From assembly GCA_040954595.2 (NCBI GenBank), contig CM082580.2, positions 1,602,783 to 1,666,782 of the forward strand: 64,000 nt of DNA, given 5' to 3'. The stretch comes from Balanoglossus misakiensis. Its lineage: Eukaryota; Animalia; Hemichordata. Under the pieces are notes generated by a model, which was given only the letters and a program-made list of their open reading frames with translations, did not search any database and had not been told where the DNA came from. The position numbers and the translations under genes are program-made. Of this stretch, positions 10,601 through 43,546 are shown piece after piece; position 1 is the first letter of the stretch; every line of letters starts with the position of its first letter.

Positions 10601-10847
10601 GGGTCCCCATAGAAGCCAAAACAGCAAAAAAATCAATTTTAGCACAAAAATCCTACGGGAATACACATCATACCACAAAACGGAAGTACCCCCCCCCCCC
10701 GAGAAAAATATGATGGAGGGGCCCTTAAAATTTCACCCCATCATTTTCGGGTAGTTGGGTCCCAATAGAAGCCAAAACAGCAAAAAAATCAATTTTAGCA
10801 CAACAATCCTACGGGAGCTGTTTTTCATGACATACCATACCGCACTA
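7699..10847 (-). mobile_element. Non-autonomous Academ-type DNA transposon (internal deletion derivative) with long, internally repetitive TIRs
   Basis: Termini TAGTGTGGTATG (7699) and CATACCGCACTA (10847). 3-bp TSD ACT at 7696-7698 and 10848-10850; removal restores the satellite variant TTTTCGACTGCAAAATCTC. Arms ~7699-8560 and ~10030-10847 are inverted copies built of ~160-180-bp subrepeats with poly-G/C tracts. TAG..CTA ends with a 3-bp TSD fit Academ. Confidence 0.85.
8886..9119 (-). pseudogene. C-terminal remnant of an Academ-type transposase (Cys-rich CXC-like domain)
   Basis: LPPIKKNGWKSENGVFYPVKCLALPAPKAVLELIKCGCKAGCRGRCSCSKNDLLCTPLCKC fits the P..GW...P...PAP..L..I.C.CK..C...CSC...L.CT..C.C C-terminus of Academ proteins, and it lies between the TIRs. 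Confidence 0.75.
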
Positions 10848-14285: not shown

Positions 14286-16253
14286 CTGTTGTGATTATTG
14301 CTGGAATAGGCAATGTTTTAATCTGCCTGCAAAGACTCGTGTGACAAAGATTGTCGGCCAGTCAACATCACCAACGATATTAACAATATAAAATAAGTAA
14401 AATTTCAACGATTCAACTTCTTTTCTAGCTTCCTATCTGGATAGTTTGTTTTTTTTACTCTAAAGATCGCCTTTCTTCCAGGCCACGTGGCAAGAGACGT
14501 TATCAACTTCTACTATGATCGATGCGAGAGTACTATAGTATTCTCATATACACAGACAAAGGCCACCAAAATAAGAGAATCATTTGGTCAAATGGTAGAG
14601 GGCGCAAAAACAGATATTTCAAATGACAAAATTTTCCGATAAACGTGTTTAATCAAATCAAACTGTGCTCAATGGTATGCTTGCAAAAATTGAATACAAA
14701 TGAAACAAAACACAGCAACTGCCATGAACAAGAAGTTTATTCATGTCAAAATTCAATTTTTTTGAATCATTGATTTCAATTATCAGCTGAAAACTAAAAT
14801 TAGATTGTCATCTTGAACAGTATAAAATCAGCGAGCCATTAGACATTAAGTACCCAGCATACTAAAATAAAACCATGTAAACATGCACAATTAGATAATC
14901 AAATAATTTTTATTTATTCACCATGATGTTTTTAATGTATGTCAAGTCAAAGTACTTGAAGTTATGGACGATCAATTAAAATAGAAAACTGTAATTTTAA
15001 TGGCTGGGTAATGTATCCAATTTCTGCCCAATATATGAAATTTCCGAGTTAGCAACTGAAGAATTCGTGGGGAAAATAGTTACGTGATGTGTAACAGAAT
15101 TCACTTGGAAGTAAGGAGTTTTTGTAAAATCAACATGCATATTACAATTTATTTGAAAAAACTTGATTGGCAATGGAAAATTGGCGTTTAAATATATAGT
15201 ACTTCAAGATGAACAGATAAAATATAAGTTATTACAGATGTCATTTTACGACAACAAGGAATGGTAAATCGTTCTTTAATATCTTTAAAGATGCCAGGTC
15301 AAAGGTCACCTTTGCAAATTCAACCACTGGTACCATAGCCATTTCAAATGTAGCCAAAAGTGCGCCACCACTTTCTTCAAACATACTGAAACCATCTACA
15401 GGTTACCGTAGTCATATATCTCTTGGCATCCATGGCAGTTTAGCTAGTCATGAGCTGGCAAGGGGTGACCTGTAAGCTTTAAACTCTGGCTTCGGTAATG
15501 TCGACTCTGGCTCTGGCATATACTTGCAGGTCCATATGACCTTGGGGTGAACATGGTCATGAAGAAATAAATAGAATCTGTTTGGTGCATTGTCAACTTC
15601 ATTTTATAGTTTCAAAAAATTACAATATGATGAGTAATATTGTTGTTGTTTTCAAAGAGACTCACCACACACTTTAGTAAATCAATGACTTGAAAAAGTT
15701 TTGAGGACTATCATTTGTCAGAATCTCGGACCGCGAGGCACATACTACCTTAAATAGTTTCACTCGCAGCTTCTTGTGGGCAGTTTCTCCTTGCGTACCT
15801 GTACAGACACACCAGGAGGCCGTTCCCGATGAACAACTCAACCCACATGAAAACATTCAAGCGTCTGGTCACACCCATTTCCGTCAAACAAGAACATGAA
15901 TGAAACTGCGGAGGAAGAGAACGGGAGAGTGCCCATTAACCCTGTAATGACCAATCATTTACTGGAACAAGGTTCAGGATGTACGATCACTGGAGTTGAA
16001 AATAAGGTCATGGATTTGAAAATTATTTTGAGTTATGAAATTGAAAATACATATTTTTCATTGTGGATTCTCCGACATAAATATTATCAAAAACAATAAG
16101 GGTTGTCTTTTTAATTTATGACATATAACGCCATGAATCTAGCCCATTAATACAAAGGCAATACTAAAACACATTTCGGGTTAGCGTTATGACAACTTGA
16201 AGAAAGTATGAATACAAACTTTCTAAAGTAATATTTTAAAGGTTGGCGTATTG
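14286..16253 (+). repeat. Segmental duplication, copy 1 (~1.97 kb; partner 31185-33153)
   Basis: Starts CTGTTGTGATTATTGCTGGAATAGGC and ends GGTTGGCGTATTG in both copies; offset ~16.9 kb. Paired ORFs 15896/32797 and 15674/32575 are nearly identical. Confidence 0.95.
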
Positions 16254-16367
16254 ATTACAGCTTGTTTGTTCTGCTATTAATGGAAATTCGGTTAGAGCCG
16301 TTTGAGGCAACTCTTATTCTGTCAAAGTTATGGCGTTAACTTATTCTGATAAAGTTATGTTAACGCT

Positions 16368-16476
16368 AATCTGATTAAAATCAGATGTAGGGAACGGCGA
16401 CGTGTTTTTTATGCTGTCGCAGCATCAAAAAACTACGTCGCCATTCCCTAGGCCTACATCTGATTTCAAACAGATT
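16368..16476. mobile_element. Short hairpin MITE-like element (related copy at 16738-16840)
   Basis: AATCTGATTAAAATCAGATGTAGG...CCTACATCTGATTTCAAACAGATT fold-back. A second diverged copy with the same AATCTG...CAGATT ends lies at 16738-16840. Confidence 0.6.
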
Positions 16477-16510
16477 GTGTTAACATCAGGAACACTTTAC
16501 ATACATAAAC

Positions 16511-16721
16511 TACTGTAAAACACTTTATTTTAGCGAGTTGAAATTTTCACGATATCGAGAGAGGCTACTGTTTCGCGAGTATTAATTTTCGCGTTCTCTT
16601 ATTTCATTCACTGCATCGTTATCTTCAAAAATAATTATGCGACCTCTTATTTTCATACCATTTTGGCTCTCACGTATCTCGCGAAAATGTATTGCTCGCG
16701 AAAATAACTTGTTTCACAGTA
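16511..16721. mobile_element. MITE with TACTGT...ACAGTA ends
   Basis: TACTGTAAAACACTTTATTTTAGCGAG at the left and CTCGCGAAAATAACTTGTTTCACAGTA at the right form imperfect TIRs; internal TTTCGCG/CGCGAAA subrepeats. Confidence 0.65.
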
Positions 16722-17152
16722 TATGCAAATATGCAGTAATCTGAATAAAATCAGATGTATGGTACGACGACGTCTTTTACTTATGTGGTACAGTATTATT
16801 AGTATGCTGTCGTCATACCAACTGCGATTTTAGTCAGATTGTATGTACGTCAACACTGATTGTTGTGGCTGCCTTAAATAGGTTTTCACTTTGCGCTACC
16901 TCTATACGTAACGCGTTCACTCAGTAGACCAAAGTACACGGATGTCCAGCAGACAAGAGTTCCTGTTTATACCATGAGGCTAGAAGACTGTATTGTGTTA
17001 TTATACAGTGGTGCAGTCTAGATTTTAGTGAGGGATTGAAGCGAATCCAATTGCTTGCTTGAAACTCGCCCATCGTGATTGTGCATTGATAAAATACAAT
17101 AATCATACCACAGAAACATAAATTCCAGCTGCGCCTATCAGCGAGATTGTCA

Positions 17153-18080
17153 TAGCCTGGAGACCAGGGCGTCGGGGAAAAGAAACGCCCGGGGACAGTC
17201 TCTATTTACGAACAGAATTCTGTTCGTAGAACGACACGTGTGGTAAATCTTGCGTGTAAGCTAATTGGTCACTCAATGTTAACCACATGACATCGTCGCC
17301 TTCTAAATAAGGAAATAGAGGTGGAGTCATGTGTGAAATTCCCGCGATGGGATGTGGGAGTGGTTTTGAAAGTGTATGAATATTCATAACCAAGCTTTGT
17401 TAAAGGCACGTAAGGTGTAACTTTTGGGATAATTTTCATAATTTTTGTTTCAAACTGCACTACCATTAGTCCATGCAGATGGAGGTAGTGAACAATACAC
17501 AAGCATTATAAACCCTAAGTATGAGTGCATATGCAAGTTTTAACCAGATAAATAATAAAGCTTTGCCGCAAGCGATTATGGCCGCCACCGTGGGAAAATG
17601 CAAGAAACAATGAAAATGTTGCATTTCCGGTTGTGAAACTTCATAAACAAAACATGATCTCATCCACTTGAGCTCATGGAAGTAAATGTACACCACTGAG
17701 ACATCAGATTTTCATTTTTCATTGCAATATTGCGCTTTTTTTAAAATTGCAGGAATTTTCGTTTTTCTTTAATTTTTGGCCATTTTGTCATAAATAAGTG
17801 TTGAGCTTGATATATTATCATGAAATAGCATTTAATAGACATAATTAAAAGCATATATGAGATTATTTAAAACTTTAATTTTTTATCCAGTTACAGCTTA
17901 CGTGCCTTTAATTATATCATCCAACCACTGGCGCCCGTCAACATTTGATAGATCACTCGTTATCCATTTGTTACTAAGCGACCTCGATCGTTGCCAAGAC
18001 TACTATCTTTCAGCTCAGCAGGACTTGCTCGACTGTCCCCGAGCGTTGTATTTTAGATCGACGCCCTGGTCTCCCGGCTA
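17153..18080. mobile_element. Non-autonomous TIR element with 9-bp TSD (AcademH-like)
   Basis: TIR TAGCCTGGAGACCAGGGCGTCG / CGACGCCCTGGTCTCCCGGCTA; exact 9-bp TSD AGATTGTCA at 17144-17152 and 18081-18089; no coding capacity recognised. Confidence 0.85.
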
Positions 18081-18574
18081 AGATTGTCAATATATACGCC
18101 GCATGTTGCCAGCCAGGGCCCCGACTGACATTCCCTCTGAATATACACACCCCTCTATTGAAAATGGAACATTCCTGCAAGCAAAGCATGTTGTACTTGC
18201 TTACATCAGCTGTAGTGACTTGTGTAGACCCCCAGCGCGCGGCCTCTACTGTCTGTATATGGTCTGTCACAGTCCCCGGGAGTAACTGTCATGACAGAAA
18301 TCGGTTTGTCAACGGCAAAACGGAGATAAGGTGTTTTTTCCGAATATAGAATATTCAATTCTGTTTGATTCGGTCATGCCCAAAGTGTGCGTAGCTGTCG
18401 TCCTCTGACAACGCTCGCTCATATTTCATGCAGAGAACTTAAGTAGGTTCAAGCCAAGTTTTAATAGTTGGGCTAAGGTCTTCCCTGATAAGTGTTGAAA
18501 TGTTTGGGGTGTTACTGTCCGGGCTGTAACGACTTGGGTCGTGGAAAATGGGGGCTGAAACGACTGGGGCCGAA

Positions 18575-18630
18575 AGGGTCAGAGTGCCGGAACGACCTGT
18601 TTAAACATGTCGTTCCAGCACTATGACCCT
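18575..18630. repeat. Imperfect palindrome at the end of a short-subrepeat element
   Basis: AGGGTCAGAGTGCCGGAACGACCTGTTT|AAACATGTCGTTCCAGCACTATGACCCT, preceded by GGGCTGAAACGAC-like subrepeats from ~18520. Confidence 0.55.
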
Positions 18631-19619
18631 AAAGTGTTACCTAAGATAGTGTCCAGCGTCTAGCCGTTATTGAAATTATAGACCCTGCAGCGAGACTGAG
18701 CATGATTTGTTGTTGTCATGAAACTCATCTCGTACTCCAGTCACTTTCATACAAAACGGCTATGAGTGTCCAATGGTCTTTGTTGAGACTGTTTGACATT
18801 GAATGGCATTGACCTCGCGGGAGGATATCCTTCATGAATACAATGCAGGATATAATTTACATTGGCAAAGGGCTTTGAGGTGCACCAAATTAGTAATTTA
18901 GACACACCTTAATTATTACATGCCACCCCAAACTTTTTTAAAGCAAGAAACAAAATTGCAGTGCTTTTCCAATGACGCTTTTTAAAATGTAGAATCAGAT
19001 TGTTTTCTTGTCGCTCAGGTGTCCAAAATAAATATAGCTGTGATCAATTCCTACTTAAAGCAAACAAAAGTAAATTGAGATGAATGGGCACGTCCGGCCC
19101 ATATTTGACCCATTTCACATTTTTTCTTTCTTAGGCTGCATTCACAAACACCTCTGGAGGGGGGGGGGGGGGGAATTCATCTTTTACCGCTAATTTTCAC
19201 ATGCCCCCCCCCCCCTTTCACAACCCGAAATATTTTGAAATCCCCCTTCCGAACTGCCAAAATTTTGAAATCCCCCCATTTTCTTTCACAGAGCAAAACT
19301 CATAACTCTGCTCAAGCGCTCCCATGAAAAGAATTTGAAACTGATGTTTCCCCTCATCAGTGGTTATTAAAACTGAACATTGTTTTTATTTTTTAAGTAT
19401 TTTGTATGATTATAATTAAAAAATATACAACTTAGCTAAAATGCTTAGATGAGTTAATCAGATTTTCAAAGTCCACCTAAAAGATCATTTAATCTTTCCA
19501 GGGTGCGGTTTATGTTGGAGATAGTATCAGTTAGGCTATTTCTCAGAAAATCAATGAACGATCTGCGGACACCCCGAATAATATGTTACCACAACGCTAG
19601 CCAGGAAGCACATGGGACA

Positions 19620-19930
19620 TTTCACAATGAGGCAGTGAACACTGGGGGGACCAGACTGACACGTTAACCAATCAGGGAGCTGTATGGTGAATAAATACAT
19701 ATTAATAAGACCTAACCTACAAGGTCCTGCATAATGAGGCAGTGAACACTGGAGGACCAGACCTACACATTAACCAATCAGGGAGCTGTAAAGTGAATAA
19801 TGCATTGTAATAAGACCTAACCTACAAGGTCTGGTGAATAATACATAGTAATAAGACCTAACACATAAGGTCCCTCCAATCAGCGAGCCGCAAGTGGACC
19901 TTAGAGAAGTGGATAAACCAATCAGAACAT
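19620..19930 (+). repeat. Short degenerate tandem repeat (~106 bp) with multiple CCAAT boxes
   Basis: AATGAGGCAGTGAACACTGG at ~19626 and ~19732; TAATAAGACCTAAC three times; CCAATCAG four times. Confidence 0.7.
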
Positions 19931-19974
19931 GTAATACGTGTGCATAGGACCTGTAATGTAGGTCATTTTGAAAC

Positions 19975-20384
19975 AGGACTAGTTCACCATGACCAACCAC
20001 ATGACCCAGGAAATCGATCTGCTCATAACCCACATAACACTTAGTTGGTCTCGCTGTTAACTTTGCCTTTCGTAGTCTGCTCATCAAATCTGTAATTGTC
20101 TTGATATGTTCTTCCCATGATGCAGTGTGGATCAGTATGTGATCGATATAGTTGTCTACGTTCTTCATATCTCTTAACAATCTTCTCATAATTCTGCTAA
20201 AAGTCGCAGCACTATTTACAAGTCCGAAAGGCATTTTGATAAATTGGTATAGCCCATCATGCGTGATAAATGCCGTCAATTGTTTAGAATTATCAGTCAA
20301 CGGGACTTGCCAATATTCTTTGCTGAGATCTACTTTAGTGAAATAGTGATCCTTGGATAACTTAGCAAAAAGCAAAAAGCTCAC
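19975..20384 (-). pseudogene. pol: Reverse transcriptase, C-terminal part (frameshifted, truncated)
   Basis: YFTKVDLSKEYWQVPL, TAFIT, MPFGLVNSAATF; YIDD is mutated to YIDH. Homology stops after FLGHVVGHGEL. Frameshift relative to the upstream ORF near 20370. Confidence 0.9.
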
Positions 20385-21991
20385 TCAGGTCTGGTGTAGG
20401 CTCTGCATCAAACACTGTTATGCGATTGAGCTTTCTCATGTCAACACAACAACGATTGGACCCATCAGATTTCTTCACCATTACCAGTGGAACAGCATAT
20501 GGACTCTCTGAAGGTTCAGCTACTCCCATCTTAATCATCGTTTTGACTTCATCTTTCACTGCTTCACGGAGTGCATGAGGGATGGGGTATGGCCTACTGC
20601 ATACTGGTGTTGGATCCATCAACTTGATGTCATGGAAACCCAGGTTGGTGTTACCACGAATATCAGTTAACATATCTTTGTAATTGATCAGCAACCTCCT
20701 CACCACTTGCTTCTGTATGTCTGACAAGTTGTCACATACATTCACATCTGCAGCAAATTCTTTCTGCTTGAATGCAGGAACCCGCAGTAAGTCATCGTTT
20801 ACTTTAACCCCTGTGTTCTCTTGTACTTCTGAAGATTCATAACTCTGCTCATCTATCACAGATACACACACAATCTCAAGAAGTCCAGCTGATACTTCAT
20901 CTAGCTGATAAGTTCTTCGATAGTACCTCTTCAACAGGTTGGCATGGAATGTTTTCACCCTATGACCAAAGTCAATCTTGTAATCCATATTGCTCGCTTT
21001 CTCCACCACTGGAAAAGGACCCTTCCAGTGCATAAGTAGTTTATTATGGTCAGTAGGTAGTAGCAATAACACCTCGTCACCTTTGTTGAACTTCCTCCAT
21101 TTGGCCTTTCTATTGTAGTAGGACTTGTATTTGCCTTGTGATATCTTCAGTTCTTGTCTTGCTAAATCGCATGCCTTCTTTAATTTCTTTTGAAGATCAA
21201 GGATGTATTGATAAGTCGTTTTGGTTTCTGGTTCACTGATCTCTCCAGTCCATAGTTCTTTCAAGATAGCCATTGGACCACGCACACTCCTCCCATAAAG
21301 TAACTCAAACGGAGAGAATCCTGTGCTCGATTGAGGCGTTTCTCTGTAGGCAAATAGTAAAGCATTCAGATAACGATCCCAATATGTTGGACGTTCCTCA
21401 CACATCTTCCTGAGCATGAGTTTCAATGTACCATTGAACCGTTCCACTAGACCATTGAATGCTGGGTGGTATGGGGTGGTAGTCATCTGCTTTATAGACA
21501 AAAGCCGGCTGACCTCACGCATCACATCTGATGTAAATTGAGTTCCTTGATCTGTCAGAATTTCACGTGGACACCCCACTCTTGAGTAGATGTCCAGGAG
21601 CGCCTCTGCAACAGTCTTGGTATCAATGTTAGTCAATGCAACAGCCTCCGGATAGCGTGTTGCATAATCAACAACAGTAAGTATGTACCTATTCTTGCGT
21701 TCAGTGCATGGATGAATAGGGCCAACCAGGTCTACTGCAATACGTAGGAAAGGGATATCTATTAGTGGCATACTTCCAAGTGGTACCTTGGTCACCCGTC
21801 CCTTTGGTTGTGTCCGTTGACATGAATCACAGGACTGACAGTAACGGGAAACATCTGATGTTAGCCCAGGCCAAACGAAGTTGCTGAGGATCTTGTCTGT
21901 GGTCTTGTGAGTTCCGTGGTGACCACCCAGCACTGATTCATGGGCTAGTCTCATCACCTGGTTACGATACACTCTGGGAACCACCACCTGT
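20362..21991 (-). pseudogene. pol: Integrase followed by RT N-terminus (Gmr1 pol segment)
   Basis: HHCC (AHESVLGGHHG..CDSC), D (AVDLVGP), D (LTDQGTQF), E (LVERFN), GPF module, then RT start (PYPIP, SPYAVPLVMVKKSDGSNRCCVDMRKLN). Confidence 0.92.
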
Positions 21992-22714
21992 CACTACAGC
22001 TTGAACGACGCCACCTATGGGCAGTATTTCCGTGGCAGCCTATGAAGCTCATGAATATTTAATTAGACACAGTAATGGCGTTCGCGATCGAACACAGCTG
22101 TCGATGCACAGCATAATTCGGTGAGTAATATTGCTTTATTCCAAGTTTTGTTTAGTAAAATTAGCAAGATGTCAGAGACAATATGAAATAAAGTTGCGAT
22201 TCTGCTGTGTTATTTATGTGTATCAGCCAAATAACTTGAACATTTTGATCACCCGCTGACAGTCCCTGGCCGTTGCTATAGCAGAAGCCGTCCTAAGCAA
22301 CCATAAACAAACACTAAAAATTACAACGATTCAGCTTCACAGAATTGTTTTTTTCAATTTGAAAACCATACGAATTTAGTCTTTTATACGTAAACATAGG
22401 ATTCCATGTTTAAAATGCTGCTACAAGCAATATGACGAAATCATACCAAGCGAAAATATACGACCCTGTGTGTTCCTTGGCAGCAGCACGGGTTACATTG
22501 ATTGTAATGGCGGCGCTTCGAATTTTCGGCGACATGGTGATATTGTTCATAGAATTGACAGAAAATAAGACCGTAACTGAAAAATCAGAAACCAATAGTT
22601 TGTGCTAAAATATATTCTTGATATAATTCGCTGGAAATTCGAGGGTGAAAACGAAATAAGAAAAAAATGAATGGGCGAGATTGTTATGGTAAGGTTACCC
22701 ACATTCTTTCTATG

Positions 22715-22912
22715 TCACCTTTGACCTCAATTTCTGGAGGAAGTATAATGAGCAGGTGTTTTGTTTTTGCTTCCCTCGGATAGATAATTATTGTAAAGAT
22801 ATTTCTCTTGTTCACCTTTGACCTCAATTTCTGGAGGAAGTATAATGAGCAGGTGTTTTGTTTTTGCTTCCCTCGGATAGATAATTATTGTAAAGATATT
22901 TCTCTTGTTCAC
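22715..22912 (+). repeat. 97-bp tandem duplication in the putative first intron of the transposase gene
   Basis: TCACCTTTGACCTCAATTTCTGGAGG...GATATTTCTCTTGT occurs twice in tandem, immediately before the acceptor CCCTTTTCAG (22921). Confidence 0.9.
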
Positions 22913-22937
22913 CCTTTTCAGGTATAGATTTAGAGCC

Positions 22938-25900
22938 ATGTGGGGCAAACTATTCAACAGGAGTAGCGCACTTCTTAAAAGTTTGTCTATTGTTATGCCA
23001 AATAGAAAAGGGAAAAGTTACTTCAACATAGGCCAGTGGGCAAAGGACCAAAAGATAGCGAGACAGGTAGCTGAAGAGAAGTGTTTACAACAACTATATC
23101 AGGAGAAATTGAAGACTAGATCTTTGTCTGGGAGCGTGGCCAACAACCTATTGGTAGTTAGAACAAAGAGAGGACAGACTAAACACAGGTTTAACTTAGG
23201 AGAGTGGTGTAGACAGAGAAAGAGAAAGAGAGATGAGGAAGAAAGCATAATTCAGGATAAGTTGAATAAGTTGAGTGCAGCTAGGAGACTAGTAAAAAGA
23301 TCCTCAACCCAGCTAGCTAGACTAGAGAAGAAGAACAGTAAGATTTGTGAGATCTTAGCTACAAAGAATAATAAGAGAAAGGTAAGCTAGATCAGATAAA
23401 TAGACTTAGTCATAATTTTAAAAATCTCAGATTTGTATAAATCCTCTTCAAATTTTAGCCCAAATTCGCTTTTTGAACTTCATGTCACATGATCCTGTGT
23501 AAACAATGATAACAAAATGGGTTCAGCTTTGATGCAAAACATCTAGGTTTTCCAACAAACTATGTATATTTTTTAGGATTTTTATTGCAGAAGTTGTCAG
23601 AAAAATACAGGCTACACGTGTGTATTTCTTATCAAGGACATTTAAATTAATGATTAACTTGTAAGAAGATTTTATTTTATATATAATGATTATATTCTAA
23701 TTAGTATATATTTATCACACACTTAATCTTTCAGATTCCTGTTGATGTTGTTAATGTGAAACGCTCTAAATGGGTCCACAAGAACACTGAAGTATGTGCA
23801 GATAATAGTGAATCTTTGAAGCTGTCGCGACGTCAACAGTATGAACGTAGGTGTGAAACCTTATCAGCAGCCATAAATATTCATGTAGCAACTACAGATG
23901 TAAGCCCAGCCAAAGGTATAAATAAACCGAATGTACTACATCCACCAAAAGCAGCACTTGATGGTTTGTGGTATACTCTTGTTAATTCTGCCACTCCTGA
24001 CCAAATGAAAACATTCTTCAGAACCTCTCCCCAAATCAGTAAAAAAGTAATGCCATCAGTATTTGATAAATACATCAGTAAATTTGAGAAAAGTGAGAAC
24101 AATTTGGTGAGGAGTGTCAGAACTATGTATGAGGGCGGAGTACTATCCAAACGAAAATATAACTGTCTGAGGCAGAGTGAACTTCAGATGTTCTCCAACT
24201 TGAAACATCCTAGGAAAGCAGTAGAAATTCATTCTGGCTGTAGAATACCAAGACTGCTCCCATACACAAAAGTTGTACAGTATGTAAGTAACCTTGACAT
24301 TGGAAATCTTGAGCCAATTATATCATCTGAAGGCAAACAAGTCGGCTTAAAAAGAAACCCTGAGGAGTTGCTTATTAAGATTGCCAGTTTATATTTAAAT
24401 ATGGGGGAAACACAGCCTGATATTCTTAACTGGTTCGGTAAACAGGAGGGCTCATTTCAAATCAGTATAGGTGCTGACGGGGCTCCGTTTGGCAAACATG
24501 GACAGGCCACTGCATGGCTAGTTAGTTTCTTGAATGTGACCCACCGTGTTGCTAGCCCAGACCACAATTTTCTCCTATTAGGGGCAAACATAAAAGAGGA
24601 TGACCCCATAATGATTGAATTTGCAATTGCATTGTCAAAAGACCTTGAGTGTATTGAGAAACGTAAATATAAAGTTGGCAGTCTTGATGTAACTTTTCAG
24701 GTGTCACTTTTACCCTTTGATCAGAAGGGATTGGCCAGTGTGTCTGGAGAACTAAGCAATGCAGCAAAGTATTTCAGCTCATTTGCTAACGTTCCAAAAA
24801 TGATATTGATTGTATTGGAGCAGAAATTGGCCCAGGTCAGAAGTGGGATGAATGGAAATATCAGAAAAGAATTAAAGATGCAGAAGCTGTTGAAAAGTTG
24901 AAGTCAACTAAGAAAATTAAAACTGGAAAGCCCAAAACAGTGCGACCCAAAATCACACAATTTATAGCCAGTCTGAGGTCAAGACAGGAATTTGTACCAC
25001 CGTTGGGTAGATTTATTGATTGTGCCAAGGCTGAGCCATTGCATTTAAAGAACAATGCATGGCAATACTACTTCCAACGATTACTGATTGACGCAGTTGC
25101 CCACACTTCGGAAAAGGGTCGTGAAAATGGAGTTAAAATTGAGAATCTACCTAACGAGTCATATCTGTACAAATTCCTGTCTGCCCTAAAATATCAAGTA
25201 AAAGCTGGAAAGTTGTATAATAAGATTGTAAAATACTTCAATGAAAATAGTGTCAAGTCAAATGCCAACATTAATGTGGTTTATCGCTTCACTGGTGAGG
25301 AGTCTCGCAAACTTGCTTGGCATTTCATAGGATTGGTATTAGCATTGAGAAGCGATACAGACAGACCAAAGCGTCGGGCTCAATTAGCTCTCTACACATA
25401 TACTGGTATCTTGCTTAGAGATATCACTTTGTTATTCTCACGATTCAACATAAATGAGGGAGATTTGCTTGTACTTAGGCATAAGTGTCGGTGGTACTTT
25501 AATCTACATTCCCTGTTTCTGAATGTCAATAATACTGTGTGGCACATTGGTTATGTAGTCCCAAAACACACCACTAGTATCTATAAGCAATTCAGTCTGG
25601 GATTAGGCCTAAACACAATGGAAGGCAGAGAGGCAAAGCATCTACGCCTGCTAGAATTCAGTGAAAATTCTACACCTCAAAATAGGTGGGCCCTCATATT
25701 TCGACACGAATATGTGATGCTTTTTTGGCTGAGGAACAAAAGTCCAAAAGCTGACAACTATAGAAATGCAAATGTAGGTCAATTTGAGCTTAAAGAAAAA
25801 GAAAAATACATTCCCAGTCGATATTATGAGAATGCAGGCTACTGTATGTGTGGCAATTTAAAAAAATGAAACAATGACTGCCTGTGAAATATGTGTTGAC

Positions 25901-25975
25901 CCAATTATGGATGACATAAAAAAAGCAGCTGTCACTGGTAAAATATCAAATAAACTCAAGAAACTTATGCTGTGA
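22938..25975 (+). pseudogene. Spliced RAG1/Transib-like DDE transposase (coding exons 22938-23381 and 23735-25975; two apparent 1-bp frameshifts)
   Basis: Phase-0 intron AAG|GTAAGC (23382) to TCTTTCAG|ATT (23734) joins the 161-aa and 381-aa ORFs in frame. Motifs: IGADGAP (D ~24476), PFDQK (D ~24719), EPLHLKNN, FTGEESRKL, GLNTMEGREAKH (E ~25630). Frameshifts near 24793 and in the A-run at ~25860-25866; the second restores a CMCG..CEIC tail ending TGA at 25975. Confidence 0.75.
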
Positions 25976-26827
25976 ACAATGATTGAATTTGAAACAGTGG
26001 ATTGTGTCACTGTGTGCTACTTTAGAATTAAAGGATAACTATAGTATTAATTACATTACAGAATTATAAAGACTCATCTGTAGTTGAGAGCTGCATTTAA
26101 TAAAAATGGAGATCACAAATCACATGAATTCACACTTTTTGAACTGGAGATGATATGTTTCTTATGGGATTTTGTATATGTGTGCATGTATGGGGACAGG
26201 GAAATTGAAACTTATCTTACCACTATTAAGTATTGTGAATAAACCCTTAATCGTATAGTGATTGCAGTGCTTTGCAAAATTAAAATGTATGACATACATA
26301 AGCTTGATAGAAAAGTTTTACATTTTTCTTGAGGAGTTGTTTATTCTGCACCTGCACGAAATTTTAATGAATTTGTGAAAAAATAAAGAATTAAGTCTCA
26401 TCAAATTCTTGATATTTATAAATTTTGTCATGGAATTAATTGTAAATATTAATTAAATTTAGACCAGAAATCCTGGTTAACTGTTAGATGAGCAGTTTTG
26501 ATTGACTTATCAATGTTGATTGTAGGTAACATACATTTTTTTCTGAAACTAATGAAAAATCTATGTTACAATAATGATGGAAAAAAAGAATTTTACAGTT
26601 TAGGAAATTTTGTAAACATTATCTGTTCATTTGTATTGAATGTAGATAAATAAAGACAAGTGATGAATTTTTGAGTCTTCTAATTTTCCTTTTTTTATTT
26701 GAATATATGTCAATTGTGAGAGGACTGTCTTGACAGACTGATACATCTACACTGAACAACATGTGCCACAGATCAGGAAAAAAATGTTCCTCAGATGGGT
26801 TGAATCAGTGTGAAAAATCAATAGGGT

Positions 26828-27478
26828 TCAGTTCTCTGGATGTAATGGAATTCCATGTTTGTTCCAGGCACCAAAGCTGAATCTAACAGCAACAGTCTCC
26901 CTGTTGATAAAATATTTCACAACACAGGGCTTCTCAGGTGTGAATATAACAGCTACCCTCTTTCCACGGACTTTCTTCTCTAGGATATTCTCTGTATGCT
27001 GACCGATAGCGCCCTCGTAGCAATAACCTTTCCGTATCACATACAATAGCTTCAAGGAACTTGTGAAGGTCAAGGTTATGATAGCCCTGGAGGTCTTCTC
27101 GTCGATACCAAAACCGGTCCGAGTAGCAAACTGATGAAAAACATCAAATACTTCCCTCGGCATTTGTCGTGTAAAGCTGCTTTGCCATGGTGACCTTAAC
27201 GACGGGGATGTTGACAGCCGAGCGTAGAAGGTCTTCTGCCAGTAGGTCATATCACGCTGAAACATGGGAAATACGGCGACGTCACGCCAACGAATCTTGT
27301 CCTTTGACAGCTTGTCGTTTCGAAATATGGCCCTTGTTGTCACATCCTCAAGTTCATCAAAGAGTGGGTGTATATACAGATTGTCCGACACGCATTTTTT
27401 ACGTTTAAGCACAGATTTTGCCTCTCGCAATTTGCGTTTTATAACTTTCTCGGCATCGATCAACACGGGCGCCGCCAT
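26828..27478 (-). CDS. Intact 216-aa protein of unknown function, second (convergent) gene of the transposon
   Basis: Uninterrupted ORF; strong start context CCAAGATGGCGGCG 85 nt inside the right terminus; basic NLS-like N-terminus (KRKLREAKSVLKRKK); minus-strand AATAAA downstream at ~26694-26699. Confidence 0.75.
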   Translation of the reverse strand: MAAPVLIDAEKVIKRKLREAKSVLKRKKCVSDNLYIHPLFDELEDVTTRAIFRNDKLSKDKIRWRDVAVFPMFQRDMTYWQKTFYARLSTSPSLRSPWQSSFTRQMPREVFDVFHQFATRTGFGIDEKTSRAIITLTFTSSLKLLYVIRKGYCYEGAIGQHTENILEKKVRGKRVAVIFTPEKPCVVKYFINRETVAVRFSFGAWNKHGIPLHPEN

Positions 27479-27562
27479 CTTGGCAATGCGTTGCTATGGT
27501 GAACATGGGAGCTCGCGCTTCGCGGAATACTGCCCAACATAGCTCTAGTATTTCCCGCAGTG

Positions 27563-29370
27563 TGTAACAGCTTTTCACCAAATTGGACCATTGGCGAATT
27601 GAACTCTCTGTACAGGATCCCATCTTTCATGATGAACTTCAACCTACCTCCATTCCTAGTCACTTTCTCGTCACCCAAAATTGCCTTCTCACGTAGTTTG
27701 TCAAGAGTGGAGTCTTCTTCTTGAGCTTGTTGAAGCTTCCCTGGCATCACCACTTCACCAACAGCTTTAGGTACTTTAAGCTCTCTGATTGGTTTTTGGT
27801 TGGCTATCTTCTGGGCTCTGGTCTCCACAGCATTTGCTAAACCTGGTACCTGTCCAACAGTTGTACACAGTCTACATGTCGGCAATGGTTCCTGCCATGT
27901 AGTATCAGGATTCGAAGGGTCAGATACACCATCAATGTTGCCCAGTATTAAATCATACACATGGTTCATCATGCACAGTGCAGTAACATCACCAACAAAG
28001 TAAGGGGTATCAACTTTTATAGAGGCTACAGGTACTCTTCTAATAGTCCCATCTATCAGAACACACGTCCTGTACTCACCAGTCAGCTGATTACTTGACA
28101 CCAGACTTCTTCGAACTACCACGCTACTACACCAACTATCACGCAAAACGCTAACCAGCTTACCATCGAGCAATCCCTTCATTACCGGCATCTTCTTCAC
28201 TCCATGGGCACTACAAGCAGCACTCATCACTGGGAGCTTATGACCACATGGTAACACGAACTCCTTATTCAGTGTTGCATCTGTTTTATCTATTTCCATT
28301 GCTACCACCATACATGCATAACCAGTGTCTAGTCCCCTGGGCTGTTGACGGTTGCCCCAATGTGTACATTCTTGTTTAGGTGGATAGTTTCTATCTTCTT
28401 CAGTTAACAATACCGCCGTCTTATGCATCTTTGGCTTACTTCTACAATCTTTGGCCATATGACCACCTTTACCACATACGAAGCACGTACCTTTAAAAAC
28501 ATGGGAACCATTGGTTTTGTTATTAAACTTATTTACTTGATTTGGATATACAGCAGGCTTGGTATTTGCTGTCGGCTGGCTCCTTGGATTATTCTTGGCA
28601 TTACTTGGCAGTTTCCACCACCCTCGGGCATCTAAGTATTTTGAGGCAGTAGATACCATCTCTTGGACATTCTCTGGCCGTCGCTCTCTAATGAACATTG
28701 CCATGTCTCTGGAACATACTCCAATAAACTGCTCTCGAAGTAACAGATCTGTAAGCCCATTGTACGTCTTTGGAGTACCAGCCAGTTCTACCCATCTGCC
28801 CAAATAGTCACCAATACGGTCCATAAACTTTTGAGCACTTTCATCATAATGTGGCATACACGAACGGAACTTGTCATGAAAACTCTCCTCACTTAACTGG
28901 TAAGCCCTCAATAACTCTGGTTTCAATTCATCATAATTATTTGCAGACGCTGCAGGCATTTGGTTGTATGTGGATACATCCTTACCTTGTAACAATATGC
29001 ACTGAGATTCACCCCCAGTCATCTTTTTCCCACTTCTGAGCAGTGGCGTAGCGCTGAAAACGTTGAAGGTACGCATCCATATCATCAACATCCTCACGAA
29101 AACCCTGTAGTCTCGGAGCACGCGCTTTGGCCAAATTATTTTCAGTAACCTGCTGTTCTGTATTTTCCCCTTTCAATTTTAATTCTTGTAAGTGAATTTG
29201 CATTTTCAGTATCTCTCTCTCATGTTCCTCGCGCCGCCTATTATCTTCTCTCTGCTCCTCTCTCTCAGTAGCCCTAAGATCCCTCTGTCTAATTTGTTCC
29301 TCTCTAACATAATCTTTTAAAGCAGTCCCTTCCAACCCAAATTTTCTCCCTATCTTAGATATTCTTTCTG
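27563..29370 (-). pseudogene. gag: Gmr1-like gag-protease (frameshifted)
   Basis: Coiled-coil N-terminus, DDMDAYLQRFQRYA, SCAN-like LLLREQFIGVCSRDMAMFIRERRPENVQEMVSTA, CCHC knuckle CFVCGKGGHMAKDC, protease LRDSWC (DSG degenerate) and DLILGN; frameshifts near 29000-29015. Confidence 0.88.
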
Positions 29371-29654
29371 CATATATGCTTTGCTGTATCGCGATTTACA
29401 ACCCCCAGTTTGACAACCCCTAGCAGTACAGGGCATTCAGCACAAGTCAACACAGCCAAACGCACGACGCAAACCAACACGGCCCATATTATATAGCAGG
29501 AAACCACAAGCGCACATACAGTAACAGTACCAGCCTACAGACCCAGCACCGTCTTCACAATTTGCAGAATCTCTACCTAGCAAAACCATGGTCTCCACTA
29601 TATGGCAACAATTTATGATAGTATACAAACAAATGCACAACAAAACGATAAAAC

Positions 29655-29671
29655 TCCCGGACGAGCCCCCA
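29655..29671 (-). promoter_or_regulatory. Primer-binding site complementary to tRNA-Pro
   Basis: Minus strand TGGGGGCTCGTCCGGGA, 2 nt after the LTR end ...TGACA; this is the canonical tRNA-Pro PBS. Confidence 0.9.
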
Positions 29672-29673
29672 AA

Positions 29674-30970
29674 TGTCAGAGGTGGAGGGCACCCCTCTGA
29701 TTCCAGGATAAATATTGAGCAGCTCTCAGTGCCAAGGAGTAAACATCCGTGGATAAGGTATGGGGAGAAACTACACAAACCAGTGCGGATACAATAATAC
29801 AGTTGATTTAATTTAAATCAATTAAATAATATAAAGATAATACTAGGAATATAATTTTTGTGCACAATATGCACAATATCAAATGTCTCTGTCCTAACCA
29901 ATTTAGCAGGTACAGGTATGCTGATACAATTGGTCATACAATACAATGGGTTACTTAATATATTACATAAATGAATATATTCACAATATCACTATAGTTT
30001 ATTGTCTATTGCATATTGTCTAAACAATGGTAAGTGTCACTTAGCTGTATATAACATTCATAGTAAACAATCATGATTCAACCACAATATGGGATGGAGT
30101 CCTGTATAGATGAACGATGTAGCGACGATCCACATTACACATACAATCTGTGATACACCATGTTTTCTACCACTTGTAGTCCTCCAGTAGTCAAGTAAAC
30201 ACACTGAAGACTGACTTGTTAGATGCAAGTCTTGGGTTAAATGGCTGAATGAAAAATCAACAAACATTGACTGAAATGTCCACCTTAGCAACTGTTCACA
30301 AATGAATACTGACGTTTCTCAATAATAATTATCAGAAATTTGGACTAGTTAAAGCGTCATGATTACATGTGATATCATGGAAAATTATGCTTTAACTATG
30401 ACCGTCCTATTACTTACAAATTGTCGAATTTGACATAAATATCCATAAAATATAAATTTAAGTTATAGTAAATAAATAAACAAATACATTACTTACACGA
30501 GAATTCTTCACCACACTTCATGCTCAGCAATACCGGGTCTATAGGATGGTTCCACAGAACTCTGCTTGGAGCAATTTCCAGCCACACCACATACGACCAT
30601 GCCAGCCACGCCAATCGCCCGACCACACCGGTTTGCACTGAATAAGCACAATTCTGCTTTCTAGAAGTACTGAATTTACTTCCACTCGAATTGCAGAAAC
30701 AGTGGTCCTGAGAGCACTAATGCGCGCTACAGCATTACATGGACACAGCAAGGTATGGTGCAATATTTCCCCTAGTATTTCTACTCACTGAGCAGGGAGA
30801 CCCGACTTGTTGCTCCCTTCAAGACCTAAATTGAAGTGTGCTCTCTTACTACACGAAACTTAGCTAACGAAGCCCTATTCATTAACATGACAATACACGG
30901 TGTCACTACACCTGAAATTATGCGGGCACCTGGGTTTCCACTGACTCCAGTACTACCTAATTATATGACA
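29674..30970 (-). repeat. Putative 5' LTR of the Gmr1-like element (~1.3 kb, single copy)
   Basis: TGTCA...TGACA termini; inner end abuts the PBS; outer end coincides with resumption of homology to 13952. No second LTR is available to confirm. Confidence 0.7.
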
Positions 30971-31184
30971 AGTTGGGACCGACAGTCGAGACCCATACAG
31001 CATTACAATCAACAAATAGTAAAAAAAATAAAAAAGTAAACAAAAAACAGGAAAACATTTTAAAAATACAAATAAAATTATGAAACTACTAAAAAAACAA
31101 AACAAAAACAAAAACAACACAAAAACACAAAACAACAAGCGAGGTCAATAAAGATTAACGCTTACAAAGATAGAAAAAGTAAGA

Positions 31185-33153
31185 CTGTTGTGATTATTGC
31201 TGGAATAGGCAATGTTTTAATCTACCTGCAAATACTGGTGTGACAAAGATTGTCGGCCAGTCAACATCACCAACGATATTAACAATATAAAAATAAATAA
31301 AATTTCAACGATTCAACTTCTTTTCTAGCTTCCTATCTGGATAGTTTGTTTTATTTTACTCTAAAGATCACCTTTCTTCTAGGCCACGTGGCAAGAGACG
31401 TTTTCAACTTCTACTATCATCGATGCGAGAGTACTATAGTATTCTCATATACACAGACAAAGGCCACCAAAATAAGAGAATCATTTGGTCAAATGGTAGA
31501 GGGTGCAAAAACAGATATTTCAAATGACAAAATTTTCCGATAAACGTGTTTAATCAAATCAAACTGTGCTCAATGGTATTCTTGCAAAAATTGAATACAC
31601 ATGAAACAAAATACAGCAACTGCCATGAACAACAAGTTTATTCATGACAAAATTCAATTTTTTTAATCAGTGATTTCCATTATCAGCTGAAAACTAAAAT
31701 TAGATTGTCATCTTGAACAGTATAAAATCAGCGAGCAATTAGACATTAAGTACCCAGCATACTAAAATAAAACCATGTAAACATGCACAATTAGATAATC
31801 AAAGATTTTTTATTTATTCACCATGATGTTTTTAATTTATGTCAAATCAAAGTACTTGAAGTTATGGAAGATCAATTAAAATAGAAAACTGTAATTTTAA
31901 TGGCTCGGTAATGTATCCAATTTCTGCCCAATATATGAAATTTCCGAGTCAGCAACTGAAGAATTCGTGGGGAAAATATTTACGTGATGTGTAACAGAAT
32001 TCACTTGGAAGTAAGGAGTTTTTGTAAAATCAACATGCATATTACAATTTATTTGTAAAAACTTGATTGGCAATGGAAAATTGGCGTTTAAATATATAGT
32101 ACTTCAAGATGAACAGATAAAATATAAGTTATTACAGATGTCATTTTACGACAACAAGGAATGTTCAATCGTTCTTTAATATCTTTAATGATACCAGGTC
32201 AAAGGTCACCTTTGCAAATTCAACCACTGGTACCATAGCCATTTCAAATGTAGCCAAAAGTGCGCCACCACTTTCTTCAAACATACTGAAACCATCTACA
32301 GGTTACTGTAGTCCTATATCTCTTGGCATCCATGGCAGTTTAGCTAGACATGAGCTGGCAAGGGGTGACCTGCAAGCTTTGAACTCTGGCTTCGGTAATG
32401 TCGACTCTGGCTCTGGCATATACTTGCAGGTCCATATGACCTTGGGGTGAACATGGTCATGAAGAAATAAATAGAATCTGTTTGGTACATTGTCAACTTC
32501 ATTTTAAACTTTCAAAAAAATAACAATATGGTGAGTAATGTTTTTGTTGTTTTCAAAGAGACTCACCATACACTTTAGTAAATCAAAGACTTGAAAAAGT
32601 TTTGAGGACTATCATTTGTCTGAATCTCGGACCGCGAGGCACATACTACCTTAAATAGTTTCACTCGCAGCTTCTTGTGGGCAGTTTCTCCTTGCGTACC
32701 TGTACAGACACACCAGGAGACCGATCCCGATGAACAACGACACCCACATGAAAACATTCAAGCGTCTGGTCACACCCATTTCCGTCAAACAAGAACATGA
32801 ATGAAACTGCGGAGGAAGAGAACGGGAGAGTGCCCATTAACCCTGTAATGGCCAATCATTTACTGGCACAAGGTTCAGGATGTACGATCACTGGAGTTGA
32901 AAATAAGGTCATGGATTTGAAAATCATTTTGAGTTATGAAATTGAAATACATATTTTTCATTGTGGATTCTCCGACATAAATATTATCAAAATCAATAAG
33001 GGTTGGCTTTTTAATTTATGACATATAACGCCATGAATCTAGCCCATTAATACAAAGGCAATACTTAAACACATTTCGGGGTAGCGTTATGACAACTTGA
33101 AGAAAGTATGAATACAAACTTTCTAAAGTAATATTTTAAAGGTTGGCGTATTG
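31185..33153 (+). repeat. Segmental duplication, copy 2 (partner 14286-16253)
   Basis: Colinear near-identical match to 14286-16253; an extra 25-bp match 30971-30995 = 13952-13976. Confidence 0.95.
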
Positions 33154-33686
33154 CTTAGCATAATCATTTTTCCGTTTGCTGTGACATTTGTCTCCCTGTG
33201 AGAGTTTAAGTAAATGTAGAGTCACGCAAATTAGGCAACATCAATATCCCATACGTAATTCAGTGTGTTTTGTTCGCATTTTTGGTTTTCATTTTGAAAA
33301 TGAACAAAGGACTTTCCTATCATTGACCAACACTCGTATGAATACATCCAAATTACCCAACTTTAATTTTCCTTAAAGAATTGGTCAGCTCTGCGAATAT
33401 ATTTCACCTGACCACTTCCTTTGCTAAGGAAGAGTGTTGTTTATGTAATAATATTTTTATAATATTTATAACTTATGTAGCACATTAAATCTCAACGTGC
33501 TTTAAGTTGTCCCATGGTCATTTGAGCTAGGATGTTGGACCTAAATATTCCATTCAACTCCCTGGGGAGCAAACAACATCTCACCATCATTAGAAATGCC
33601 AAATTACAGTGCTTTTGGCCACGTATTAACCTGGGGATTTACAGTTAACTTTAAATACACACGCATATGCATTTAATCCCCATGTG

Positions 33687-35920: not shown

Positions 35921-37780
35921 TTAAGTCAAAGGCTGACATTTCTCACTGTGTGTGACCAGGGTATCATTTTAAACACAGACTGGACTTTGAGTATTGTGTC
36001 CAATGGAAAAAATACATCAGCATCTATGTCTGCAAAAATGGTGTCAGAACTGACATATCTTATCATGTATGCCATCGAACTCAAATGATAAAATCTTCCT
36101 TTCATGTGACCTGTCTGGTTAAAATTTACTGCCAACATTTCACCATGCTTTACCCACCCAAGACACAGTGTGTCAAATCCAATATTTGGTTCAATGAATG
36201 AACCATGAAAGTTTCCGAATTGGTACTACCCGAAAACGTCACATCAAGCTAAATTTGGAATTTTGATGGGGTGGGGAGGTAAAGCTTATCTAACATATAG
36301 TCGTTTAGATTTAACACTATGCCTGTGAGTTACATGTTAATATTTTCTGCATGTCTGTCGCGTACAATGCGTCGGTGCGCAAAAATGATCACAGGTACTA
36401 TTCAGAAGAATTCCGCTGATTCATGATGACTATGTGCATGGAAAAACCCTGATTATGATCTAACTGATAAACAATAGCATGATATTAATAAAATATACAC
36501 ATTAACCAATGAATGAACCATCATGAAGATTGTGCCCTAACACTTATTTAAGCTTTTATCACTATTATACCTTTGTCATTACTAAAGATATGAACAGCCC
36601 TGTACACCAAAGCTATCACCACATTTGTTAACCTTTATTACACCATTCATATGAAACCATTCACCATCATCAACCTCTATTATATTCATTGTTTTGCCCA
36701 TTATAATCTGTGTACCCTCAATTTTACCACAAACCATCACCACATCAGTTAACTGTTTATTAAACACTTCCACATGTGTTGCCCATTATTATACCATTGA
36801 AATTTGTAAATCGATCATTATACCTATCATACAAGCAATTGCTGATTGCTGTTAACCCTTGTGTACCACAAGCCATTATCATGAAATAGGCAACATGAAT
36901 TTCACATAACACAGTTTGTCAGCTCTGAAAATGAAGTTATCATGATCATTATCTATGCTAATTAAAAGTGTACGTGGGAAATTGACCTTAGCAGGCGCTG
37001 CCTTATTAAGCTCAAAGTCAGAGTATAAATAAATGTACAGGCGTATAAATTAGACAACATCAATATAACGCAGATAACACAGTTTGTCAACTCTGAGAAT
37101 ATTGTTCTCAGGACCATTTCCCATGCTTAATTAAAGTGTTGTGTATGTGGTACAGTTTGGATTCCTTGTCAGATTTCCTATAACACAGGTCGTGAGCCCC
37201 GAAAAGTACCATAACACAATTCTCATGAACATTTTCCATGATCAATAAAAGTGTTGTGTGTAGCATAGTCATTTTTCCGTTTGCTGTGACATTTGTCTCC
37301 CTGTGAGAGTTTAAGTAAATGTGGAAACACGCAAATTAGGCAACACCAATATCCCGTACATAATTCAGTGTGTTTGTTCGCATTTTTGGTTGCCATTTTG
37401 AAAATGAACAAAGGACTTTCCATTGACCAACACCCGTATGAATACGTCCAAATTACCCAACTTTAATATTCCTTAAATAATTGGTCAGCTCTGCAAATAT
37501 TTTTCACCTGACCACTTCCTTAGCTAGGTAAGAGTGTTGTTTATGTAATAATATTAATATAATATTTATAACTTATGTAGCACATTAAATCTCAACATGC
37601 TTTAAAGTTGTTCCATGGTCATTTGACCTAGGTCGTTGGACCTAAACATTCCATTCAACTCCCTGGGGAGTACAGCTCACCATCATTAGCAATGTCAAAT
37701 TACAGTGCTTTTGGCCACATATCAACCTGGGGATTTACAGACAACTTAAAATCCCCCTCAGCATGCATTTAATCCCCATG
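35921..37780 (+). repeat. Segmental duplication (partner 50017-51716)
   Basis: Both begin TTAAGTCAAAGGCTG and run colinearly through unique sequence, degenerate tandem units, a SINE tail and the first satellite B monomer. Confidence 0.9.
36880..37540 (+). repeat. Degenerate tandem repeat C (also 33154-33440, 50980-51470, 52520-53480)
   Basis: Recurrent AATTAGGCAAC..CATAACACAGTTTGTCAGCTCTGAGAATA..CCATTTCCCATGCT..AAAGTGTTGTGTATGTGG units, heavily diverged. Confidence 0.7.
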
Positions 37781-43463: not shown

Positions 43464-43546
43464 GCACTCAAATCACGGCTAAAAAGTCACCAAATCTCGT
43501 AAAGGTTGCTTGCGTATGTTCTTCGATAGTTAATTTAGACAACTAA

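Follow-up and report, generated by a model that had tools for sequence, protein, structure and literature searches.

A broken two-gene DNA transposon with a predicted RAG1/Transib-fold transposase in the hemichordate Balanoglossus misakiensis

RAG1 is the enzyme that assembles antibody genes, and how the single-gene Transib transposon turned into the two-gene RAG machine is a long-standing question. The closest described systems are the RAG-like (RAGL) transposons, of which ProtoRAG is one, Transib, and the Chapaev3, EnSpm and other families of the CMCT clade. Here we describe a 5571-bp insertion in Balanoglossus misakiensis that resembles all of these in part. It lies in a stretch of 64,000 nucleotides, referred to below as the window (GenBank assembly GCA_040954595.2, contig CM082580.2, positions 1,602,783 to 1,666,782 of the forward strand). 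The insertion has CAC..GTG ends, a 3-bp target-site duplication, a transposase gene with a D/D/E triad and, convergent to it, a second open reading frame (ORF2) that is under selection. We consider it probable that this is a broken copy of a cut-and-paste transposon with a transposase of predicted RAG1/Transib fold, the convergent gene likely being an accessory transposition factor.

ProtoRAG carries two convergent genes between CAC-tipped inverted ends and duplicates 5 bp of its target. Its RAG1-like transposase (RAG1L) has the zinc sites ZnC2 and ZnH2 and a Cx2Cx3GHx4C tail (PMC7204232), and its partner RAG2L is a six-bladed kelch propeller. Transib has CAC..GTG ends, zinc motifs and the transposase as its only gene (PMC1131882); its duplication is usually 5 bp, and 3-bp duplications are found in some Drosophila Transibs (10.64898/2026.08.26.747230). 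Chapaev3, of animal hosts, has an LH motif, duplicates TWA and carries a Chapa zinc finger together with C(2)C and H(4)H (PMC4079192, PMC4411706). Both EnSpm and Chapaev3 typically have CAC..GTG ends and make 3-bp duplications (PMC12730594, PMC4079192), and EnSpm also has a second protein (PMC1131882). Across the CMCT clade, which includes Plavaka, ESTA and Lanisha, ends are CA..TG, duplications are 2-5 bp, and the C(2)C and H(3-4)H motifs that lie after the second catalytic aspartate (D2) and before the glutamate are given as common to all groups (PMC12730594).

Two convergent genes between CAC..GTG ends

The element starts with CACTACAG and ends with CCCGCAGTG. Its two flanks agree over 1 and 3 bp (TGT) and over none of the lengths 2 or 4-8. 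It interrupts the pol gene of a Gypsy retrotransposon. Codon phase is equal in both host flanks, the element plus one duplication measures 5574 bp (3 x 1858), and the host protein continues over the insertion point when read with X there. A preliminary description of the locus, made from the DNA letters, had proposed just such an insertion with removal restoring the host frame, and these results bear it out. The intact 216-aa minus-strand frame that it placed tail to tail with the transposase gene is likewise open throughout (27478-26828). An AATAAA does follow each gene, as was also noted there, but one on each strand occurs in 68% of shuffles of the intergenic gap (71% A+T), and we give this chance-level signal no weight.

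Both ends are bipartite, with a CACT(A/G)C tip, a divergent spacer and the 11-mer TGGGCAGTATT at nt 27-37 from either end. Of the first 45 nt, 22 are shared by the left and right ends, falling into two blocks (tip and 11-mer), and the only two matches of the 11-mer in the window at up to one mismatch are those at the ends. Taken by itself, the count is within chance (35 of 100 shuffles); we credit the symmetry because the 11-mer is equidistant from both tips, not because of that count. In a diverged relative found in contigs of the same sample (runs X1 and X2) the box is kept, the spacer differs and the terminal GTG stands 25 nt after 27537, so that box and tip are equally far apart. Near the right end, GCCATCTTG is the same 9-mer as in ProtoRAG TR5 (PMC7481187); such a YY1-type 9-mer is a common motif and hence weak evidence.

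To place the element among its relatives we used the best 80 of 212 relatives confirmed among 253 pattern matches in a metagenome scan, together with one locus (L081) from a scan of prokaryotic genomes, 81 loci in all. ORF2 lies downstream on the minus strand in 35 of these loci and downstream on the plus strand in none of the 81; most of the others end too soon. It is present in 31 of the 33 loci with at least 1.5 kb downstream and in 22 of the 23 with 2 kb or more. At 80% nucleotide identity the loci group into 44 families, and ORF2 occurs in 15 of the 17 families with enough flank and in 17 families overall. Judging by the named relatives, the hosts of the metagenome contigs are likely corals. 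L081, the one relative among 23 prokaryotic matches, has both genes and a 3-bp duplication, and is probably animal DNA in a bacterial bin (an Anaerolineae metagenome-assembled genome, MAG). Among viral contigs, a relative is encoded by 0 of 64 pattern matches; the ORF2 alignment was too variable for scanning.

Related ends mostly begin CACG(C/G)(C/T)GGG and form imperfect inverted repeats of 30-50 bp. In most families ORF2 starts ATGGCG in the YY1-type context AA(A/G/T)ATGGCG, usually 76-120 nt inside the right end. Clean 3-bp duplications (GAT, ATT, TAG, ATT and ATA) are present in 5 of the 13 loci with both ends and flanks (L003, L006, L075, L076 and L081); none is longer than 3 bp, and one more, TTA, is ambiguous. 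Five or more flank matches arise in 0.8% of flank permutations (p 0.008), with rows that are not fully independent. The duplication of L049 was set aside as ambiguous, since it sits at an internal end-like repeat, and L068, with 1 base of left flank, was left out of the tally. Members of one family have differing flanks, and thus several insertion sites per family; a left flank common to L073 and L075 and a right flank common to L011 and L012 suggest collapsed multi-copy assemblies. The arrangement first proposed for the window, CAC..GTG ends that make 3-bp duplications and enclose a second, convergent gene, is therefore conserved. Just outside the left end of L081, on the bacterial MAG contig, positions 2512-4240 consist of tandem units of ~294 bp, each beginning CACTC(C/T)TGGG.

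The two genes have also been inherited together. Across 16 elements, namely the window copy and 15 families without L078 and L081, pairwise identities of transposase and ORF2 correlate (Mantel rho 0.63, p 0.0001), and the two trees contain largely the same groups. Such congruence reflects long co-inheritance and is no proof of interaction. The ratio of non-synonymous to synonymous substitution rates (dN/dS) of ORF2 is 0.29-0.34 in four close pairs, so ORF2 is under purifying selection (dN/dS about 0.3). In two complete copies, L003 and L006, the main transposase exon and ORF2 are both open.

A further feature of some relatives is the presence of ORF2 fragments upstream of the transposase. In 6 of the 17 ORF2-bearing families (L002; L010/L011/L012/L063; L015/L047-L052/L057; L068; L073-L075; L081), pieces copied from the element's own ORF2, 30-340 bp long, 84-96% identical and in ORF2 sense, lie in the transposase 5' region, from the left end to the transposase start. 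The window, L003, L006 and L076 have none there. The left 840 bp in the L048 family open with a right-end-like tip, followed by an internal end-like repeat. The copied pieces may have arisen because the right end repeatedly replaced the left, or may be a self-silencing device.

At 50% identity the ORF2 family falls into 739 clusters, and named members occur in Paramuricea and Pocillopora. No relative turned up in a word-index search with the window ORF2 by itself; the loci and profiles supplied them. The precomputed accession PF26709 is attached to 17 of 17 word-index matches of the family and is not mentioned in the literature searched. Conserved positions are aromatic/basic (W80, R86, R87, P97, F111, Y189 and a C-terminal YG.WN..G.PQH), the median isoelectric point (pI) is 9.3 and no acidic position is conserved in more than 70% of rows. 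The ORF2 model (pLDDT 77) predicts a mixed alpha/beta domain preceded by three long N-terminal helices, with no kelch propeller. Neither ORF2 nor the transposase had a useful match in sequence searches of PDB and Pfam, and Foldseek of the ORF2 model in PDB gave no match at E<=0.001. A wide structural search was filled by matches to the N-terminal hairpin (best Z 7.1), in a second comparison the alpha/beta domain reached no more than Z 5.0 (YwmB, RnlA, AcrID1, TBP-like and helix-grip folds), and one viral row was returned (E 7e-4, TM 0.17). These searches used the full-length model, and the alpha/beta domain may have a known fold.

An Argonaute N/APAZ identity for ORF2 was tried and rejected. 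It came from one Atlas search that returned Argonaute N/L1/PAZ clusters at 0.93 with low recognition (1361), and it did not recur: the lead was gone with the family member P0343, and the 50 rows of the second structural comparison include no Argonaute chain. SPARTA appeared in five Foldseek rows at E 0.09-0.14 only and was dropped with it.

ORF2 could work outside the transpososome, as a regulator that restrains the transposase or as anti-silencing cargo that shields the element from small-RNA or chromatin silencing. The linkage, the congruent trees and the purifying selection fit such a role equally well, the upstream ORF2 pieces could couple the RNAs of both genes, and the Argonaute clusters would suit it. 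That lead is weak, however, for the reasons just given, and the ORF2 pieces vary in position among the families that have them and are missing from the window and from both intact copies, as well as from L076. We see this role as possible but unlikely.

Predicted fold of the transposase and its place among described families

A spliced transposase gene had been claimed in the preliminary description. An in-frame phase-0 GT..AG intron is indeed present (23382-23734) and its removal joins exon 1 in frame to the main exon; the splicing itself stands as a prediction. The exon 1 motif matches the Lineus protein P0050 at 9 of 12 residues (E 3e-4), and a motif of RF(P/N)(I/V)G type precedes the main exon in 10 of the 13 two-ended loci. 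The motifs ADG (24473), FDQK (24716), EPLH (25033), TGEESRKL (25291) and MEGREA (25618) were all located in the order originally given; their RAG1 counterparts we presume to be those named at that time. The gene has two frameshifts, one near 24791 and one in an A7 run near 25865, owing to which the window copy is probably dead.

Contigs of the same sample (X1/X2) hold diverged relatives of both genes over window 23945-27537, with patches ~80% alike, so the organism has more than one family of such elements. At the 24791 frameshift one X2 contig carries an additional base. The predicted leader intron contains a perfect 97-bp tandem duplication (22715-22908), which the X1 and X2 contigs skip; this may be graph collapse.

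With the 359-aa middle frame as query, 76 relatives of 630-2000 aa were found among 3152 candidates. The closest, P0001 of Ptychodera flava, has 75% identity over the middle frame and 74% across 288 residues of the frame before it. Identity to the others is 32-44%, and those with names belong to corals, an anemone, Lineus and Owenia. When 68 of the 76 are aligned, the triad is almost invariant (D181 in 68/68, D262 in 67/68, E566 in 68/68), and the LH motif is present in 68/68. The C-terminal CxC..CxxC tail is found in 49/68 by pattern, with the individual cysteines in 63-66/68. A search of the 38 columns that follow D2 finds the C(2)C zinc motif in 0/68, no other column from D2 to H370 is mostly Cys or His in these 68 proteins, and H(3-4)H occurs in 24/68. 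This absence of C(2)C was missed in the preliminary description. An N-terminal CxxC was seen in none of the 68 proteins, many of which are without exon 1; exon 1 of the window has three scattered cysteines.

Of the 57 weak Pfam families for the 68 members, the 25 at the top of the list include no transposase family, and no RAG1 came up at E<=10 when PDB sequences were searched with a profile. Structures were compared with a model of P0001 (pLDDT 91.4). Foldseek gave 49 matches at E<=0.001 (best 6.7e-12), and those listed are all RAG, BbRAGL or HzTransib. A Foldseek-free search of 48,161 chains ranked RAG1 first (Z 21.6, root-mean-square deviation (rmsd) 4.1, 468 aligned), then BbRAG1L (19.9), HzTransib (14.4) and P element (11.3), with the next at 7.5. 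A second comparison gave Z 22.5 for RAG1 and 20.0 for HzTransib (rmsd 4.3, 425 aligned). D181 and D262 lie at strand ends in the model. The transposase is thus predicted to have the RAG1/Transib fold, as had been suggested, and to be about as close to HzTransib and BbRAG1L as to RAG1. The Z scores are similar and structural-alignment identity to all three is 8-14%, so what it shares with ProtoRAG is a matter of layout and does not demonstrate kinship. A conserved stretch of ~109 residues with two helices, from D262 to H370, may be the equivalent of the region of RAG1L that binds RAG2, alpha11-alpha12 of the zinc-binding domain (PMC9435367).

Compared with each described system, the element agrees in some features and departs in others. 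With RAGL/ProtoRAG (PDB 6B40) and RAG1 it has a predicted core fold in common that spans about 465 residues (rmsd about 4, Z 19.9-22.5), and with ProtoRAG also the two convergent genes, CAC-tipped inverted ends, a Cys-rich C-terminal tail and a YY1-type 9-mer near one end. In contrast to ProtoRAG, the duplication is 3 bp in the window and five relatives, the partner is an alpha/beta protein of 205-250 aa, the zinc motifs are absent (C(2)C) or partial (H(3-4)H), the tail is CxC..CxxC and the inner box is equidistant from both tips. Transib (HzTransib, PDB 6PQX/6PQN) has the same fold (Z up to 20.0 over 425 residues) and CAC..GTG ends, but the present lineage has ORF2 in 31/33 testable loci, a 3-bp duplication and none of the C(2)C motif. 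Chapaev3 is similar in its ends, duplication length, LH motif and animal hosts; here the duplicated triplets are TGT, GAT, ATT, TAG, ATT and ATA instead of TWA, C(2)C is lacking and a second gene is conserved. The tips of the copy in the window read CACTA and CACTG, as in EnSpm/CACTA; most related ends start CACGC or CACGG. Ends and duplication length agree with the CMCT clade and the zinc motifs do not. The comparison with EnSpm, Chapaev3 and the CMCT families draws on their published descriptions; the fold matches included no Chapaev or EnSpm structure.

Defining features are lacking for RAGL (the RAG2L partner, the 5-bp duplication and the zinc site), for Transib (a single gene) and for Chapaev3 (TWA and C(2)C). 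We take this to be a two-gene lineage of the RAG1/Transib/CMC clade, probably distinct from all three, whose elements work like members of the CMCT clade. Since Chapaev3, EnSpm and some Drosophila Transibs make 3-bp duplications, this length is not unusual in the clade. The fold, the linkage and the duplications support the original proposal of a RAG1/Transib/Chapaev-related lineage with a 3-bp duplication and a non-RAG2 gene. Its further suggestion that the family is undescribed holds for the literature searched, in which we found no description of the lineage; Repbase, Dfam, subscription journals and the RAGL/Transib supplements are outside this scope and may hold it.

The element might accordingly be a CMC family already catalogued in Repbase or Dfam (EnSpm, Chapaev or Transib), its second gene alone being unannotated. 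The EnSpm/Chapaev3-typical ends and duplications would fit, the family is common (its clusters have up to 531 members, named coral ones among them), and PF26709 on the ORF2 relatives shows that this protein family has been noticed. The zinc motifs given for all CMCT groups are absent or partial, however, the duplications are not TWA, the Pfam families listed include no transposase, and all named relatives are labelled 'uncharacterized', 'hypothetical' or 'unnamed'. We judge it rather improbable that the element is such a family.

Coordinates and setting of the insertion

Table 1 Features of the transposon and its host element (positions in the window)
Feature	Positions	Strand	Remarks
Two-gene DNA transposon	21992..27562	.	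5571 bp, CAC..GTG ends
Left target-site duplication	21989..21991		TGT
Right target-site duplication	27563..27565		TGT
Left end	21992..22028	plus	CACTACAG, spacer, inner box TGGGCAGTATT (22018-22028)
Right end	27526..27562	minus	CACTGCGG, spacer, inner box TGGGCAGTATT (27526-27536)
Predicted 5'-leader intron	22689..22921	plus	GTAAG..TTTCAG
Transposase exon 1 (predicted)	22938..23381	plus	ATG at 22938 or 22995; basic; motif FNIGQWAKDQK
Predicted phase-0 intron	23382..23734	plus	GT..AG
Transposase main exon	23735..25975	plus	frameshifts near 24791 and 25865; C-terminal CxC..CxxC tail
Catalytic triad codons (predicted)	24476-24478, 24719-24721, 25630-25632		D1, D2, E
ORF2	26828..27478	minus	216 aa, intact, basic (pI about 10), N-terminal helices and alpha/beta domain (predicted)
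YY1-type motif	27474..27482	plus	GCCATCTTG; overlaps ORF2 start codon, ~80 nt from end
Host Gypsy LTR retrotransposon	14286..33157	minus	integrase ahead of RT; pol interrupted by the transposon

The long terminal repeats (LTRs) of the host element (14286-16257 and 31185-33157) are 96.8% alike. On the minus strand its domains run gag (SCAN, zf-CCHC), integrase, reverse transcriptase (RT), an order that we take to be Gmr1-type. A second Gypsy element at 39347-43472 (minus), with long open frames for gag (PNMA, zf-CCHC) and for pol (RT, RNase H, integrase), is flanked by repeats near 35921-36971 and 50017-51067 that are 94.6% alike. Large satellite arrays occupy 1-13300 and 54250-64000, with A+T-rich units of ~79 bp (27-28 bp subunits; orientation flips near 6.7 kb) and units of ~192 bp.

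Possible mechanism and meaning

That ORF2 is a passenger captured once and merely carried is very improbable: physical linkage alone would yield congruent trees without function, but its open frame, MA start and C-terminal motif are kept at a median identity of about 22% (about 39% for the transposases), and its dN/dS is about 0.3.

The ends, duplications and triad together indicate cut-and-paste transposition with a 3-bp stagger. Going by the fold match to RAG1 and HzTransib, the transposase would bind the 30-50 bp imperfect symmetric ends, cut at the CAC tips by two-metal chemistry, probably via flank hairpins, and insert the element with that stagger. The zinc site of RAG1/Transib is apparently lost, and the C-terminal four-cysteine tail probably reads the inner end box. 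The hairpin chemistry and the role of the tail are both extrapolated from RAG1L, whose C-terminal tail binds the terminal inverted repeat (PMC7204232). Both genes are likely driven by promoters just inside the ends. ORF2 might bind the transposase or the transposon DNA, filling the role that RAG2 has for RAG1 with an unrelated fold; we put the chances of this at about even.

Several observations weigh against this account. The linkage was assessed in the 81 metagenome and prokaryotic loci only, and ORF2 is missing at L018 (1.8 kb downstream) and L037 (6.1 kb, with a partial transposase). A useful cargo gene of any kind, as well as a binding partner, would account for the linkage and the selection. 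One near-identical ORF2 pair has a dN/dS of 1.41 (1 synonymous and 5 non-synonymous changes), and dN/dS is saturated in seven distant pairs. Flanks are unmatched in 7 of the 13 two-ended loci and ambiguous in one further locus (L049). Finally, the predicted fold is that of P0001 and not of the window's own broken protein, and D181, D262 and E566 are equated with the RAG1 triad by conservation, order and secondary structure.

In the literature searched, RAG2 is the only established convergent partner of a RAG1-fold transposase. Here an unrelated partner has the same layout, is kept in at least 17 families and is under selection. Two large unannotated families of proteins in coral, hemichordate, nemertean and annelid genomes thereby gain an identity. 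The intact copies L003 and L006 make it possible to test what the partner contributes, what sets a 3-bp rather than a 5-bp stagger, and how the transposase functions without the zinc site. A stronger reading, which we hold to be doubtful, is that this is a widespread animal lineage of superfamily rank, sister to RAG1/Transib, which has lost the zinc site and has independently acquired an obligatory second subunit of new fold, docking on the transposase at the place where RAG2 docks on RAG1. If that were true, the lineage would be a natural parallel to the origin of RAG1-RAG2, and one that could be rebuilt from L003 and L006.

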